DNA of 61,718 nucleotides, counting the filler. It is 7 parts of 7 records of this genome, joined end to end, with 100 filler letters (N's around TTAATTAATTAA, not from the genome) between each part and the next. Parts side by side here need not be neighbours in the genome. Positions count along the whole stretch, not along the records: positions 40,329 to 50,365 come from SRR31156797_5314; 6 more parts are not named here. One strand, written 5' to 3'. A program made the translations under genes and the position numbers. Below the pieces are notes generated by a model that was not told where the DNA came from, searched no databases, and saw nothing but the letters and a program-made list of their open reading frames with translations. This document shows, one piece after another, positions 40,229 to 46,498 of this stretch (within the stretch, counting starts at the first letter, position 1; the number at the start of each line of letters is the position of its first letter).

Positions 40229-40328
40229 NNNNNNNNNNNNNNNNNNNNNNNNNNNNNNNNNNNNNNNNNNNNTTAATTAATTAANNNNNNNNNNNNNNNN
40301 NNNNNNNNNNNNNNNNNNNNNNNNNNNN
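40229..40328. other. Artificial contig spacer
   Basis: N44-TTAATTAATTAA-N44. Confidence 0.99.
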
Positions 40329-43151
40329 AAACTTTTCCATCTCTGCAACATCTTTTTCTTTCCAGATTCCGGCCGATTCGTAACCATAAATAACTCCCTG
40401 GGGCTGATTGATAAACCATTCATTATTTATATCATCCTCGAAACCATTGGCAAGTTTAATAATTTTATCGTCCGACCAGGAACCATTTAAATTGGTTGAC
40501 CATCTAAACTTATTGGAGGCAATATTAATGGTATTCAATGTTAAATCAATGCCTTTATTTTTGGTTTCGCCAATGTTGTCGAAAGTTGTTGAATAGCCAG
40601 ATACAGAGGGGATTGACATTTTCATCAGTAAATCGGTTGTTCTGGATTTATACACATCTACAACTCCGTTAATACGTCCGTTAAATACAGAAAAGTCTAA
40701 ACCAACATTGTATTGGGTTGTTTTTTCCCAACCTAATTCCTGATTTGCCAGGACAGTGGAGGTTTTGGAGCCTGATACAGAGCCTGAACCTTGAGCATAA
40801 AATAAAGATGTTATACCTCCCTTAGTTGAATATGGATTAATGGCAGAGTTGCCGGTAATACCTACACCGGCACGCATTTTTAACTGATCTATCCATTTTA
40901 TTTCTTTTATAAAATTCTCATCTCCCATGCGCCACCCCAATGCTGCACTCGGGAAAAAAGTCCACTTATGCCCCTCTGTTAACTGACTTGCCCCGTCGTA
41001 TCTCCCGGTAACCGTTAACAGGTATTTCTGGTTGAGATTATAATTTATGCGAGCCATAAACGACATCAACTGTTTCTCGGCTACATTTGAACTCCAGTCT
41101 GAGAGGCTCACATTTTTTTGTGAAATTGCATTCCACTTTTGACTGGAGAAAGGAATGTTACTGGCAGACATATAGCTGTCTTCGTAATTAGACGCTGTCT
41201 GACTTTGAAGGATAGTTACTCCAATAGTATGTTTTTCAAAACTTTTATCGTAGTAAAGCAGGTTGTCTAAAGTATAGCTAAAAGTTTGGCTCTTTAATAA
41301 TGAAGCGAAATTTGAACCAGTCCTAATGACTGACATTCCATCCAGGTATATGCCATCGCGATAAGTTGAAAAATCGGGGCCAAAATTTATCCGATACCTC
41401 AGCCCATCCAGTTTGGAAAAAATTGTTCCCAAATCTATTGTACCGTAAAAGCTCATCATTATTCGATATGTAGTTCTTTGGTCCTGAGAATATTTCCATT
41501 CATCAACCACTGTTTTCACAGCATTGTCACCACCTGGATATTCAACCCGGTTACCATCAGAATCATAAGGAAGTGTGTACCTGAAAATCATTCGGGCGGT
41601 TTGGTATAATCCTGATTTTTTGACCAGACTGTTTCGTCCAACCGTTGACTGCCCGAATTCATTTACACTATTGCTTCCATTTATATGGCCTCCTAAAGAA
41701 AACCAATTATTTGGTGTAATATCAAAACTGGTGTTAAAAACATAACGCTTAAGACTCTGACCTTTTACTGTGCCAATGTTGTCAATATAGCTAAAGGAAA
41801 CATATCTGTTCATCTTATTATTTCCGCCACTTACACTTAAAGTATGTTCATGTGTCAGGCCAGTACGCGTTACGATGGATGTCCAATCGGTTGTTGTTAA
41901 TTTTGAGGGATCCCATATTCCGGAACTCCAACCTTTCTTTATATTCGACCATGCAGTAGGATCTGATGATCCCAGAAATATCAAATAGTCATTTTCAATA
42001 GTTGGCTCATCGGCACGGGGGTATAGTGTCGGATTTGAATAATATTTTGCCCATCGGCGCCATTCAATATAATCACCAGCATTCATTATTTTGCTGTCAT
42101 CCTGCAAAGTCTCAATGGTCATCCTTCCATTATAGCTCAGCTTCATTTTTCCTTTTTTCCCCTTTTTAGTTGTAATAAGAATTACACCATTGGCACCACG
42201 CGAACCATAAATGGCGGTTGCAGAAGCATCCTTCAAAATATCAATCGTCTCAATATCGTTAGTACTCAGGTTGTCAATACCTCCCAGTATTACGTTTTGG
42301 TCTTCATCTACCAGGTTGGTTACCAGTGGGATGCCGTCGACAACATACAGGGGGGCATTGGATGCAGTTAAAGAACGAACACCACGGATATAGATATTTC
42401 CAATTTGCCCAGGGCGTTCGCTTGATGTGACATCAATGCCGGCAGCTTTTCCTTGCATTGCCTGAATAACATTGGTAACAAGCCGCGATGTAATCTCGTT
42501 GGCATCTACACTTACCAAAGCTCCGGTAACGTCTGACTTTCGTTGGACTCCATAACCAATTGCCACTACTTCTTCTAATCCAATATCTTCAATAAACATG
42601 GTAACATTGATTAGGATTTTCGAACCTATCTTTATTTCCTGTGGTTTCATTCCGACAAATGAAAATTGAAGAAGGTCATCAGTTGAAACATTGGTAATAT
42701 TGTAATTCCCGTTAATGTCGGTAATTGTGCCCCTTGTAGTATTTTTTATCAATACCGTAACCCCAGGTAGCGGCTCCCCATTGTAGGCTGTTACTCTACC
42801 ACTTACACGTGTCTGCTTTTTAATCAGAAAATAATCTCCTGAGTCTTTATCAGGAATTGTTAATAATATAAAGCGGTCTTTTACTTTGTAGGTGACGTTT
42901 GTTCCCTTAAATATTTCGTCGAGTACATCAGCTATTTTTTTATTATTAGCTGTGATGGTTATTGTTCTATTTACGTCTATAATTTTTTCACTGTACATGA
43001 AGTAGAATTCGCTTTGCGCTTCAATATCCAGCAATACTTCTTTAACAGTTGCATTCGTTAAATTGATATTTAACAATTTTGATTGCGAATAGGATTTTAC
43101 TGCAAATTGACTTGCAACAATGAAAAGCACGAAAAAGACAGTACGTTCCAT
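40329..43151 (-). CDS. SusC/RagA-family TonB-linked outer-membrane transporter with N-terminal STN domain (3' truncated)
   Basis: EEVVAIGYG, PLYVVDGIP, ILKDASATAIYGSRGANGVILITTKKG, LGWEKTTQYNVGLDF. Confidence 0.95.
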
Positions 43152-43452
43152 AAGTTTAATTAATTTTCACAACCTTAAGATTGTTCCAATCCCAGCGTTA
43201 ATAATAGTTAGGCGCATGTTCTATTACACAATGATAAAAAAAAAGAATAATAAAAATCGCATATTTGTAGCATAATTTAAAGCGCAGTTGGGAGATAAAT
43301 TCTAGAAATAGAACTACTAATTCGGATTTTAAAAATGCTTTTATTCGCAGGAATGAATATTTTCGACAGCAACTTTCTAAAATTATTTTTTACTAAAACT
43401 TCCCGAAACACTGCGCAACGAAATCTTGTATTGTTTGTAAAATAAACCGTTT

Positions 43453-43493
43453 AAAAACACAAATGGGAACCATTCTTGACGAATAGTTCCCAT
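43453..43493 (-). terminator. Rho-independent terminator ending the candidate ncRNA
   Basis: ATGGGAACTATTC-GTCAA-GAATGGTTCCCAT followed by TTGTGTTTTT. Confidence 0.8.
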
Positions 43494-43980
43494 CCACGTT
43501 CAAGTAACCGAGGTTACTCTTTCGCGCCAGGCTACGGTTATTGCGACCGGCTTTTGCTTTTTCTTTCGAATCTGCTTTTGCCCCTGACTTTCCGGTTCGA
43601 CTTACTATGGCCAAACCTTAGAGCCGTTCTTTTGGTATACGCGCTTACCTTCCTGAACGAAGTGTTACTCAGTGTATTCGGTTTGTCCCGAGGGATGTCT
43701 CCTTTCCAACCAATGTTTTCGAGTTGCCTCTTATGCATTGTGCAGTTTTACAGCTGAAACCTTGGTCTCTGTGCTTCCTGCCTGATAACCCAATCTTGAA
43801 AGAACTTCTGGATTTTCTTTCAGATGATTGCCTGAATCTTTACATTCCAGATTGTAGGATTCAAACTTCGGCTTTTTCGTTACGCCTTCCCGGGGGAAGG
43901 GGTGAATTGGTTTTTGTTTCAGCTAAGAAACATTTCCCTTTTCCATAATTTCAAAGCAGCCTTTTATCGCTCACCTGATG
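43453..43980 (-). ncRNA. Candidate large (~525 nt) structured non-coding RNA
   Basis: Own Bacteroidota promoter and terminator, no credible ORF, long-range helices, many hairpins and GNRA loops; family not identified. Confidence 0.7.
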
Positions 43981-43983
43981 ATT

Positions 43984-44014
43984 CAAATGTACAACGAAAA
44001 ATGAAATATGCAAG
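43984..44014 (-). promoter_or_regulatory. Bacteroidota primary-sigma promoter (-33/-7)
   Basis: CTTG-19nt-TACATTTG matches TTTG-(19-21)-TAnnTTTG. Confidence 0.75.
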
Positions 44015-44099
44015 TGATATTCAATGCTTTGTATTCACTATGAATTAACTATGGTTATCAACAATTGTTAATAAGATCGTTTAGTCTTTTATCAAAGGC

Positions 44100-45236
44100 T
44101 TATGATAAGCGGTTTTTGTAATCCTCGTAAGTAAACCTTCTTACTATCTCAAGTTTGTTGTCTTGGTTCCAAATTCCAATTGCCGGGTGGTTTACGCCGT
44201 TAAACATGGTTGTTTTAACCATGGTGTAATGAATCATGTCCAGAAAAACAATACGTTCACCAATTTTTAATTCCCGCCCAAAATCATAGGTTTCCATAAA
44301 ATCGCCGGCCAAACAACTTCCACCTCCCAAGCGGTAAAGGTGCATACTTTCGGGTTTAGGATCAAGGGCTCCAATTATTTTTGGGCGGTAAGGCATTTCA
44401 AGTGTGTCGGGCATGTGAGCAGTAAAGGATACATCAAGAATTGCTGTTTTTACTCCTTTGTGTTCAACAATATCTTGAATTGTGGATACCAATACGCCTG
44501 TTTTCCATGCAAAAGCACTTCCTGGCTCCAGTATAATTTCAAGCTTGTATTTATTTTTAAAACTCTTAAGTAGTTTAATAAGGTGGTTGTGGTTGTAGCC
44601 TTTACGTGTCATTAAATGGCCTCCACCCATATTAATCCAATTTGCTTGATGGAGGTATTTTTCAAACTTTTCTTCCAGTTTTTTCAGTACGTTTTCAAGG
44701 CTGTAAGAATCAGATTCGCACAGTACATGAAAATGTAATCCTTCTATGCCCTCTGGTAATTCTGATGGCATTACATTAATGTCAACTCCCAACCTCGATC
44801 CTGGGGCACTGGGGTTGTACAAATCCGTTTCAACATCTGAAAATTCGGGATTAATTCTTATTCCACAAGAAACAGGGTGATTTGCTTTTTTTACTTTTCC
44901 GTAATATTTCTCGAATTGAGCAAAGGAGTTAAATGTAACGTGGCTGGAATACCTCAAAATCTCATCGATTTCATTTTCGTTGTAAACAGGGGCATAAACA
45001 TGAGCTTTTGTTTTCATTTCTTCGAAACATAAGCGTGCTTCGAATAAGGAGCTGGCTGTGGCACCATGAATGTATTCCCTGACAATGGGGAAAGCACTCC
45101 ACATGGCAAAACCTTTAAAGGCAAGAAGAATTTGAATTCCTGCCTCATTCTGAATACGCCGAATGAGTTCCAGGTTATTCCGAAGTAATTTTTCGTCGAG
45201 TACGTAGGCCGGGGAAGGAATTTCTGAATAGTTCAT
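44100..45236 (-). CDS. nspC: Carboxynorspermidine/carboxyspermidine decarboxylase
   Basis: PSPAYVLDE, LAFKGFA, TASSLFEARL, YNPSAPGSRLG, NMGGGHL, HMPDTLEMPYRP, HYTMVKTTMFNG. Confidence 0.95.
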   Translation of the reverse strand: MNYSEIPSPAYVLDEKLLRNNLELIRRIQNEAGIQILLAFKGFAMWSAFPIVREYIHGATASSLFEARLCFEEMKTKAHVYAPVYNENEIDEILRYSSHVTFNSFAQFEKYYGKVKKANHPVSCGIRINPEFSDVETDLYNPSAPGSRLGVDINVMPSELPEGIEGLHFHVLCESDSYSLENVLKKLEEKFEKYLHQANWINMGGGHLMTRKGYNHNHLIKLLKSFKNKYKLEIILEPGSAFAWKTGVLVSTIQDIVEHKGVKTAILDVSFTAHMPDTLEMPYRPKIIGALDPKPESMHLYRLGGGSCLAGDFMETYDFGRELKIGERIVFLDMIHYTMVKTTMFNGVNHPAIGIWNQDNKLEIVRRFTYEDYKNRLS

Positions 45237-45304
45237 GTTGCAATGAAAATAAAGCAGAGAGTAAGTAAAGTAATACTTTACTCTCTGTTTTTAATATCTG
45301 GTAT

Positions 45305-46498
45305 TTACATTTCCAGGTTGCCATTTATTTCTTCGTTCCAGGGGAGGCCAAACTCGCCAATGCGTTCCATGAATGGATCCGGATCAAACTCTTCTACATT
45401 AAATACTCCTTTGCCTTGCCATTTATTGGTTAAAACCAACATGGCACCTAGCATGGCCGGAACTCCGGTTGTGTATGAAACACCTTGTGTTCCGGTTTCT
45501 TCAAATGCTTTTTGGTGGCTGCAATTGTTCCAAACGTAATAGGTTTTCTCTTTCCCGTCCTTAATGCCTTTTATTCGGCAACCAATTGATGTTTCGCCAG
45601 TGTAATTATCGCCCAAATCGCCAGGGTTAGGAAGTACTTCTTTTAAAAACTCCAATGGAATTATGTCAACACCTTTATAATTTACAGGGTCAATTCGACT
45701 CATACCAATATTCTGGATAACACGAAGGTGGGTAAGGTATTCTTGTCCGAAGGTCATCCAAAAACGCGCTTGTTTTAGACTGGGGAAGTTTTTTGTGAGT
45801 GATTCCAGTTCTTCGTGGTACAATACGTACGAGTCGCGCTGACCAATATTGGGATAGCTAAGCTCCTTTTTTATTTCGAAAGGCTTGGTTTCAACCCATT
45901 TGCCATCTTGCCAATAGCGGCCATTCTGAGTAATCTCGCGAATATTGATTTCAGGATTGAAATTGGTAGCAAAGGCTTTACCATGGTCGCCCCCGTTGCA
46001 ATCAACAATGTCGAGGTAATGCATTTCATCAAATTGATGTTTAGCAGCGTGTGCTGTATAGATACTTGTTACTCCGGGATCGAATCCACATCCAAGAACT
46101 GCCATAATTCCTTTTTCCTTAAACCGATCGTGGTAAGCCCATTGCCAACTGTACTCAAACCTGGCTTCGTCCTTTGGTTCGTAGTTGGCCGTATCCAGAT
46201 AATGAACTCCGGTTTCAAGGCAGGCATCCATTATTGGTAAATCCTGGTAGGGAAGAGCCACATTAATTACCAGCTTGGGTTGAAACTTTTTGATTAAGGC
46301 AACAGTTTCGCTTACATTGTCGGCATCCAGTTGGGCTGTTTTAATTCTGCCTTGTCCCACTTCTTTTGCAATAACTTCGCATTTCGATACAGTACGACTA
46401 GCCAGCATTATTTCTGAAAAAACTTCAGGATTATTGGCACATTTGCTGGCAACAACACGTCCAACTCCACCGGCCCCAATAATTAATACTTTACTCAT
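45305..46498 (-). CDS. Carboxynorspermidine synthase/dehydrogenase (saccharopine dehydrogenase family)
   Basis: IIGAGGVG, NVALPYQDL, YLDTANYEP, GCGFDPGVT, ATNFNPEINIRE; adjacent to nspC. Confidence 0.93.
   Translation of the reverse strand: MSKVLIIGAGGVGRVVASKCANNPEVFSEIMLASRTVSKCEVIAKEVGQGRIKTAQLDADNVSETVALIKKFQPKLVINVALPYQDLPIMDACLETGVHYLDTANYEPKDEARFEYSWQWAYHDRFKEKGIMAVLGCGFDPGVTSIYTAHAAKHQFDEMHYLDIVDCNGGDHGKAFATNFNPEINIREITQNGRYWQDGKWVETKPFEIKKELSYPNIGQRDSYVLYHEELESLTKNFPSLKQARFWMTFGQEYLTHLRVIQNIGMSRIDPVNYKGVDIIPLEFLKEVLPNPGDLGDNYTGETSIGCRIKGIKDGKEKTYYVWNNCSHQKAFEETGTQGVSYTTGVPAMLGAMLVLTNKWQGKGVFNVEEFDPDPFMERIGEFGLPWNEEINGNLEM

Follow-up and report, generated by a model that had tools for sequence, protein, structure and literature searches.

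A large structured non-coding RNA encoded beside nspC represents a family of Bacteroidota RNAs without a match in Rfam 15

The RNA gene and its signals

The minus strand of positions 43453-43979 in the stretch of DNA analyzed here (61,718 nt in all, hereafter the window) is an independent gene for a non-coding RNA of about 527 nt, with its own promoter and terminator, lying between nspC and a susC-type gene. The first-pass annotation, which was made from the letters of the sequence, had proposed a so far unannotated, free-standing structured RNA gene of about 525 nt at this place, and the promoter, the terminator, the homologues, the covariation, and the lack of a coding signal described below all bear this out. 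The features of the locus are as follows.

43453 to 43979, minus strand: RNA gene; its transcript is predicted to measure 527 nt, starting with the conserved AUCAGGUGAGCGAUAAAAGG and ending in the U-tract
43984 to 44014, minus strand: Bacteroidota-type promoter, with CTTG at 44014-44011 (the -33 TTG at 44013-44011), 19 nt, and the -7 box TACATTTG at 43991-43984
43453 to 43495, minus strand: intrinsic terminator, with a 15-bp stem AUGGGAACUAUUCGU/GAAUGGUUCCCAU (43495-43481 with 43475-43461) followed by the U-tract UUUGUGUUUUU
44100 to 45236, minus strand: nspC, encoding carboxynorspermidine decarboxylase, the upstream neighbor (TIGR01047, 523.8 bits against a cut-off of 409)
40281 to 43151, minus strand: SusC/RagA-type TonB-linked receptor with an STN domain, the downstream neighbor, given for context only

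The ends of the transcript are those predicted from the promoter and the terminator, and the homologues found by nhmmer and BLAST cover exactly the same interval. A covariance model of the 5' domain (CM R1, 116 positions) matched 43864-43979 with 122.9 bits and an E-value of 7.8e-31 and found a single copy of the RNA in the window. The generic marks of a free-standing non-coding RNA gene, namely a promoter, a terminator, covarying structure, and no conserved open reading frame (ORF), are thus all present.

The promoter boxes are as first described and are conserved in an alignment of 97 homologues. Downstream of the -7 box the sequence continues with AAUC and then AUCAGGUGAGCGAUAAAAGG. Counting from the conserved A of an AUCAGG anchor, the -7 box has T in 67 homologues at -12, A in 74 at -11, and T in 96 at both -8 and -7; a TTG near -36 to -34 is conserved too, as are A-rich upstream blocks at -42 to -39 and -52 to -50. 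Such an UP-like A-rich block would be compatible with a strong promoter. The terminator with its U-tract, likewise conserved in the 97 homologues, was also called correctly, its stem measuring 15 bp. Its helix (helix 25 of the consensus described below) is 96.8% paired, the terminator motif occurs once in the window, and the base of the stem, GGGAAC/GUUCCC, is unusually conserved in sequence. This conservation exceeds what termination alone needs, and the stem may double as a recognition site. A generic scan for sigma-70 promoters and terminators missed the promoter and the terminator, as its rules would lead one to expect; Bacteroidota promoters lie outside them. As separate observations, the terminator stem AUGGGAAC...GUUCCCAU keeps 90-96% BLAST identity even in distant genomes, and short variants of the RNA, described below, retain GGGRA/UYCCC at the stem base.

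The absence of a credible ORF, also part of the original claim, was upheld by comparison, as the longest frames vary in strand, frame, and position among 57 homologues and no conserved ORF was found in them; some homologues have no frame above 42-62 codons on the RNA strand. The minus strand folds with -155.5 kcal/mol (z = -4.30, with none of 100 shuffles as good) and the plus strand with z = -2.05 (4 of 100 shuffles as good).

A covariation-supported fold

The search for homologues and for covariation that had been suggested as a check was carried out, and it yielded both homologues and strong covariation. Two alignments were used, one of 57 sequences (A1) and a larger one of 97. RNAalifold on A1 gave 72 pairs, 54 of them with compensatory changes; a fuller consensus from the 97-sequence alignment, mapped onto A1, has 108 pairs in 25 helices. 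As controls, the 3' partners of these pairs were slid by 1-3 columns. In A1, a standard pair is formed in 91.1% of cells (slid controls 26.9-44.7%), 80 pairs show changes on both sides (slid controls 42-51), and the covariation score is 0.342 (slid controls at most 0.106); none of 500 shuffles reached the real value of any of these measures. The top pairs by mutual information with average product correction (MIp) are mostly predicted pairs. Because the consensus was derived from overlapping sequences, it was also tested on independent metagenome members: in 47 members outside the derivation, 89.3% of cells pair, against 29-45% in slid controls, and 88.6% do so in the 35 of them whose identity to every training sequence is below 80%. 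When mapped onto 43453-43979, the consensus gives 117 pairs, of which 4 are non-canonical in the window sequence. G-U pairs alternate with A-U and G-C pairs, for example U:G in 34 and U:A in 23 sequences at the end of the closing helix P1, and such exchanges are valid on the minus strand only. A helix finder that relied on the fraction of canonical pairs alone returned many spurious G-U helices and was replaced by MIp with the slid and shuffled controls. One extension of the terminator stem proposed by RNAalifold, with GUG/UGUG and GCAC wobble pairs, was left out, its only exchanges being between G-U and A-U.

Judged from the aligned sequences, the family folds into about 25 helices arranged as a 5' domain, a variable central domain, and a 3' domain. 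Its parts are listed below.

43973 to 43977 with 43528 to 43532, minus strand: closing helix P1, CAGGU with GCCUG (A1 columns 15-19 with 593-597)
43959 to 43961 with 43545 to 43547, minus strand: helix P2, GGC with GCC; G:C replaced by A:U in 5 and 7 of 57 sequences
43962 to 43972, minus strand: 5' side of the internal loop between P1 and P2, GAGCGAUAAAA, near-invariant (columns invariant or at least 90% conserved)
within 43528 to 43547, minus strand: 3' side of the same loop, AAUAACCGUA, near-invariant, flanked by GCC (P2) and GCCUG (P1)
43871 to 43957, minus strand: 5' domain, closed by GCUUU 43957-53/AAAGC 43875-71; helices 3-8, all with compensatory changes
43931 to 43916, minus strand: invariant-loop (CUUAG-type) hairpin GUUUC-UUAGCU-GAAAC of the 5' domain, which covaries
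43900 to 43885, minus strand: hairpin CCUUCC-CCCG-GGAAGG of the 5' domain
43865 to 43869 with 43659 to 43663, minus strand: long-range helix GAAGU/ACUUC (helix 9), enclosing the middle of the molecule
43790 to 43863, minus strand: two conserved arms, the hairpin 43863-59/43837-33 and the helix 43831-26/43795-90 (CAAUC/GAUUG); helices 10 and 12
43667 to 43786, minus strand: variable central domain, closed by GUU 43789-87/AAC 43666-64; helices 13-18; missing from short variants
43730 to 43721, minus strand: hairpin GAG-GCAA-CUC of the central domain (helix r4), with changes on both sides at every pair
43549 to 43658, minus strand: 3' domain, helices 19-23 (43658-54/43630-26, 43649-47/43636-34, 43624-22/43589-87, 43617-10/43601-594, and 43582-80/43551-49), with many compensatory changes
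43570 to 43561, minus strand: hairpin UUC-GAAA-GAA of the 3' domain (helix r5), with changes on both sides at every pair
43503 to 43518, minus strand: hairpin AGUAAC-CUCG-GUUACU (helix r6), with changes on both sides at all 6 pairs

The closing helix P1 is paired in all but one of 285 cells in A1 and is among the top MIp pairs; a G:C pair in it becomes A:U in 6 of 57 sequences and, in the larger set, in 17 of 97. The stretch at 43962-43972, between P1 and P2, could serve as a protein or tertiary contact site. The CGUA/GAG beside P1 is reminiscent of a bulged-G (loop E or sarcin-ricin) motif. The long-range helix GAAGU/ACUUC is 95.8% paired, three of its five pairs having changes on both sides; one of them is UA in 64 and CG in 17 sequences of the 97-sequence alignment.

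The fold that had been drawn by eye stood in its local hairpins and failed in its two long-range helices. The three hairpins placed at 43885-900, 43831-65, and 43791-830 coincide with consensus helices 8, 10, and 12, which carry compensatory changes, and the hairpins GAG-GCAA-CUC, UUC-GAAA-GAA, and AGUAAC/GUUACU were all recovered with the two-sided changes noted above. The closing helix that had been proposed between AGGCUGC (43956-62) and GUAGCCU (43529-35) was not: its middle pair is unpaired in 39 of 57 sequences and a neighboring pair in 21 of 57, and it was replaced: P1 takes up its 3' strand, and P2 part of its 5' strand. Likewise, the proposed helix between UAGCUGAAAC (43916-25) and GUUUCAGCUG (43751-60) is only about 67% paired, with one pair unpaired in 35 of 57 sequences, and gives way to the local hairpin at 43931-43916, to which GAAAC belongs. 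Dimerization through a kissing loop formed by a palindromic CUUAG/CUUAAG loop was considered and rejected, since the commonest loop, UUAGUU, is by eye not self-complementary.

Two strong signals of mutual information lie outside the nested fold. In the first, a column without a pairing partner varies together with one base pair in the CCUUCC hairpin (trimmed columns 95/102/115 of the 97-sequence alignment, about 43906/43899/43886 in the window), a possible base triple or lineage effect. A G:C/U:A covariation also joins the ends of two adjacent helices (columns 205/344, about 43795/43664 in the window).

Distribution, expression, and relation to catalogued RNAs

The closest relatives of the window's nspC, at 75% identity, are from Maribellus, Draconibacterium, and a metagenome-assembled genome (MAG) of Prolixibacteraceae. 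Among 151 genomes sampled from the family of one Maribellus genome (G001, Prolixibacteraceae-type), 115 were matched by BLAST with the RNA and 124 by CM R1; 33 of these 124 have 2-4 matches, which are not strictly copy numbers, and the best two matches in the sample reach 81% identity over the full length. In the order sample, CM R1 matched 11 of 151 genomes and BLAST 7 of 301. At the level of the class CM R1 matched 2 of 151, namely G001 itself and one locus (L196, E-value 8e-4) that was rejected as unsupported by the family profile, leaving the 150 class genomes other than G001 with no supported match. CM R1 was likewise without a match in Carboxylicivirga linearis, Plebeiibacterium marinum, and Phocaeicola paurosaccharolyticus, and in single MAGs titled Marinilabiliaceae, Salinivirgaceae, Paludibacter, Breznakibacter, Enterocola, and Acetofilamentum; it matched five of six MAGs titled 'uncultured Rikenellaceae'. 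Metagenome and viral contig collections were scanned with one 18-letter pattern from the 5' end of the RNA. The pattern was found in at least 120 metagenome contigs, and 64 of the 120 listed are members of the family by nhmmer. An association with phages was rejected, as none of the 28 matches of this one pattern in viral contigs was confirmed by the family profile and they are chance matches.

Full-length members measure 510-710 nt. Some genomes carry tandem copies: L132, L134, and L154 have two each, and L131 (G101:C38:34000-38000) and L133 have three, of which the third in L133 is truncated where the contig stops. The copies are spaced about 950-1100 nt from one another, and every one has a promoter and a terminator of its own. 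Identity between paralogues ranges from 59 to 99% and is lowest in the central domain. Other lineages of the order have short variants (about 305-420 nt) reduced to the 5' end and the 3' part, and these would define a minimal core. Examples are the following.

L193, 1248 to 1552: short variant
L188, 1311 to 1647: short variant
L191, 1485 to 1828: short variant
L189, 1196 to 1613: short variant
L136, 1499 to 1853: short variant

A check for RNA evidence had also been proposed, and relatives were found at high depth in RNA libraries, as contigs and not as a transcript of this organism. Eight RNA runs with small shares came from a run search. Contigs with at least 80% likeness to the RNA were collected from four metatranscriptome studies (sediment, salt marsh, freshwater sediment, and marine), where they numbered 75, 69, 198, and 289, all of them inside 43474-43985. 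Their word depth reaches 10,891 for single contigs and 582,568 when summed, so family members are very deep in the RNA libraries of all four studies. Outside 43474-43985 the depth is zero, but this is uninformative as to where the transcript ends, the contigs being those of relatives with different flanks.

The RNA was compared with all 4227 covariance models of Rfam 15, which include OLE, ROOL, GOLLD, HEARO, raiA, 6S, Bacteroidales-1, Bacteroides-1, and Bacteroides-2. The cmscan run that had been recommended gave no match at the gathering score anywhere in the 61,718-nt window. Within 43200-44150, at an E-value of up to 10, it returned four chance-level matches only (three eukaryotic microRNA or long non-coding RNA models and one Listeria rliE), scoring 11.7-18.3 bits where the cut-offs are 70-90. 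For short and long relatives at seven loci there was no relevant Rfam match at an E-value of up to 0.1, and ARAGORN found no tRNA or tmRNA in the window. The remark that the RNA does not resemble tmRNA, RNase P, 6S, or signal recognition particle (SRP) RNA thus agrees with the scan, and in five of five carrier genomes RNase P RNA (RF00010), tmRNA (RF00023), and small SRP RNA (RF00169) lie above their cut-offs at other loci. The suggestion that it might belong to a catalogued motif such as Bacteroidales-2 found no support in Rfam 15. Bacteroidales-1 (RF01693, 179 positions) lies at a separate locus in all five carriers, with E-values of 1e-9 to 7e-6 and above the cut-off in one of the five, and the 6S model RF00013 had no match in any of the five.

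A full-text literature search found no description of such an RNA, although supplementary motif lists, which were outside its scope, could name one. In the main texts of two Breaker-lab discovery papers (PMC11109978 and PMC8632094), 'Bacteroid' and 'nspC' are absent from both, 'Prolixibacter' from the first, and 'Marinilabil' from the second. As far as Rfam 15 and the searchable literature show, the family is a new one among the large ornate bacterial RNAs. The novelty is that of the RNA family; its mechanism may yet be of a known kind.

The closest parallels are other large bacterial RNAs. OLE RNA of Firmicutes (about 600 nt) is comparable in size, non-coding, and built of many covarying helices, and like the present RNA it is limited to one lineage of largely anaerobic bacteria and very highly expressed, its expression being described as exceptionally high (PMC3413148). 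However, OLE RNA belongs to another phylum, shows no sequence or structure match to this RNA at an E-value of up to 10, and is encoded next to its protein partners, but in no clade does a partner gene stand close to this RNA; the neighbors compared with OLE-associated genes (nspC, GH29 fucosidase, SusC, enolase, UbiD, and 5'-nucleotidase) include none. ROOL and GOLLD RNAs resemble it as large, ornate, free-standing transcripts. They are often phage-borne near tRNAs, unlike the RNA studied here, which sits in stable chromosomal contexts and for which none of the 28 viral contigs with the 18-letter pattern was confirmed, and neither has an Rfam match to it. The raiA motif RNA is an abundant, free-standing, structured RNA of about 200 nt in Firmicutes and Actinobacteria, named after a neighboring gene to which it has no known functional link, a situation that may be likened to the nspC neighborhood here; it has no Rfam match to this RNA either. 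In Bacteroidales-1/6S RNAs, which are abundant RNAs of the housekeeping type in Bacteroidales, the 5' and 3' ends pair, as they do here, but these RNAs form a rod-like hairpin of about 180 nt with a central bubble, and the present RNA is three times longer and branched.

Gene neighborhoods and proposed role

The genes around the RNA change from clade to clade. In the window's clade the gene directly upstream, with the same orientation, is nspC in 12 copies and a GH29 fucosidase gene in 18, together 30 of 104 copies; the fucosidase gene itself follows nspC where the flank is long enough. In a second clade, represented by metagenome loci, the 'Rikenellaceae'-titled MAGs, and two genomes (G277 and G396), the order is rpoA-rplQ-eno-RNA-ubiD; among the 64 metagenome loci listed, enolase is upstream in 23 and UbiD downstream in 18, and a ubiD-like gene is closely downstream in 7 genome loci of this clade. 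Prolixibacter-type genomes carry two RNA copies flanking a 5'-nucleotidase/metallophosphoesterase gene (L156:912-2351 and L084:2226-3050), metagenome loci show yet another set of neighbors, and the out-of-family loci have no neighbor in common with the family or with each other. The RNA gene is old and stable while its neighbors change, a pattern that favors a trans-acting RNA and speaks against a functional connection with polyamine synthesis. A link to nspC or polyamines was rejected on these grounds: the adjacency holds for 30 of 104 copies and for the closer relatives only, the fucosidase gene often stands between, and elsewhere the neighbors are eno and ubiD. A conserved protein partner nearby was rejected as well, there being none common to the clades.

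We consider it probable that this is a trans-acting, stable, and very abundant structural RNA. It would act in trans, as the change of neighbors suggests, rather than regulating in cis, working as plain antisense, or serving as an mRNA. By analogy with OLE, ROOL, and GOLLD RNAs, it would most probably form the core of an RNA-only assembly or of a ribonucleoprotein (RNP). The contact surface would be the invariant P1/P2 internal loop together with the junction nucleotides, and the central domain would be a dispensable expansion, since it is missing from the variants of 305-420 nt, which are reduced to the 5' and 3' parts. ROOL and GOLLD RNAs are described as RNA-only homo-oligomers (PMC12286853), and this is one way in which the 43453-43979 RNA could work.

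Several points weigh against this picture. No protein partner is known and no neighbor gene is conserved across clades, so that the formation of an RNP rests on analogy. The RNA evidence consists of assembled contigs of relatives and cannot give the ends, the strand, or the rank of this transcript. The invariant-loop pairs proposed by RNAalifold never vary and therefore carry no covariation signal either way, and the ubiD-like gene of the eno clade, some tens of bases past the terminator on the same strand, leaves room for a role in cis.

A bolder version would make this a new class of large ornate RNA, near-universal in one sediment Bacteroidota family and among the most abundant non-ribosomal transcripts there, with a mechanism of its own, as a ribozyme or an RNA-only multimer built around the P1/P2 loop and not as a scaffold for known proteins; we regard this as tentative and, as a whole, unlikely. 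Large bacterial RNAs with complex folds are, to our knowledge, rare, and each one that we know to have been characterized revealed unexpected biology, including ribozymes, the guide RNAs of IscB, membrane RNPs, and RNA cages. More than 140 natural sequences of the present family are available, with paralogues and minimal variants (about 300 nt) among them, and covariation supports a fold of about 110 pairs. Carrier genera in culture include Maribellus, Draconibacterium, and Prolixibacter, which makes genetics, pull-downs, and cryo-EM feasible. The family would also explain a highly abundant and so far unassigned component of sediment metatranscriptomes.

The alternative that survives best, which we nevertheless think distinctly improbable, is a trans-acting regulatory RNA that base-pairs through single-stranded loops or sequesters a protein through GGAA/GAAA-rich loops in the manner of CsrB. 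A free-standing, abundant RNA with several invariant unpaired stretches (the CUUAG loop and AAUAAC) is what such a role would call for, and, as far as we know, Bacteroidota lack Hfq and ProQ and use other RNA-binding proteins, which we count in its favor. However, about 25 covarying helices, a long-range closure, and invariant junctions exceed the needs of a base-pairing RNA or a sponge, there is no repeated unit, and the paralogues differ across the central domain as a whole and not in one guide-like segment.

Catalysis, with the conserved junction nucleotides as an active site, has a still smaller claim. Large size, a multi-domain fold, and invariant unpaired junction nucleotides are features of large ribozymes and are all seen here, but there is no hint of a substrate, there are no flanking exons, and the read joints carry no signature of self-cleavage and fit differences between relatives. 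Other large ornate RNAs have, in addition, proved to be non-catalytic (PMC12286853).

The case for a cis element, either a long leader or riboswitch for a downstream gene (ubiD in one clade) or the 3' untranslated region of an nspC operon, is very doubtful. It draws on the same-strand ubiD-like gene that closely follows in the eno clade and, in the window's clade, on the nspC or fucosidase gene that precedes the RNA on the same strand, with no terminator seen in between. For nspC itself, the lack of a visible terminator before the RNA promoter makes read-through into the RNA possible. Against this stand the conserved promoter and the strong, conserved terminator that the RNA has of its own, the tandem copies that follow one another, the variety of downstream genes (SusC in the window, an opposite-strand hypothetical gene in 9 loci, and ubiD elsewhere), and the persistence of the RNA where neither nspC nor ubiD adjoins.

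It is highly improbable that the covariance models missed a very divergent or expanded member of a known family (6S-like, OLE, ROOL, GOLLD, raiA, RNase P, or tmRNA). The pairing of the 5' and 3' ends beside a large conserved internal loop loosely recalls 6S RNA, but the fold is branched and multi-domain and not a rod with a central bubble, no Rfam match appears even at an E-value of up to 10, and Bacteroidales-1, RNase P RNA, tmRNA, and SRP RNA each lie elsewhere in all five carriers. Finally, the 2-4 copies in some genomes, some of them in tandem, might suggest a repeat, a mobile-element remnant, or a small-protein gene in place of an RNA gene, a view that can practically be dismissed in the face of the compensatory changes (including G-U pairs valid only on the minus strand), the stable synteny within clades, the lack of any real match among the 28 viral-contig hits, and the lack of a conserved ORF.

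Some further observations concern the neighboring genes. Upstream of nspC lies a carboxynorspermidine-synthase-like gene (NF043000, below its cut-off), and the two form a two-gene operon at 44100-46498 directly upstream of the RNA. In the eno clade (L268, L317, L307, L285, L197, and L346-L349) the gene some tens of bases past the terminator encodes a ubiD-like decarboxylase. At 9 of 27 loci in the window's clade, a protein of about 270 residues without a Pfam match is encoded downstream on the opposite strand (for example L102:2381-3196 and L110:2230-3036). In one out-of-family genome, a 657-nt variant of the RNA is preceded by a tRNA gene (L192:1068-1139) some 340 nt upstream.

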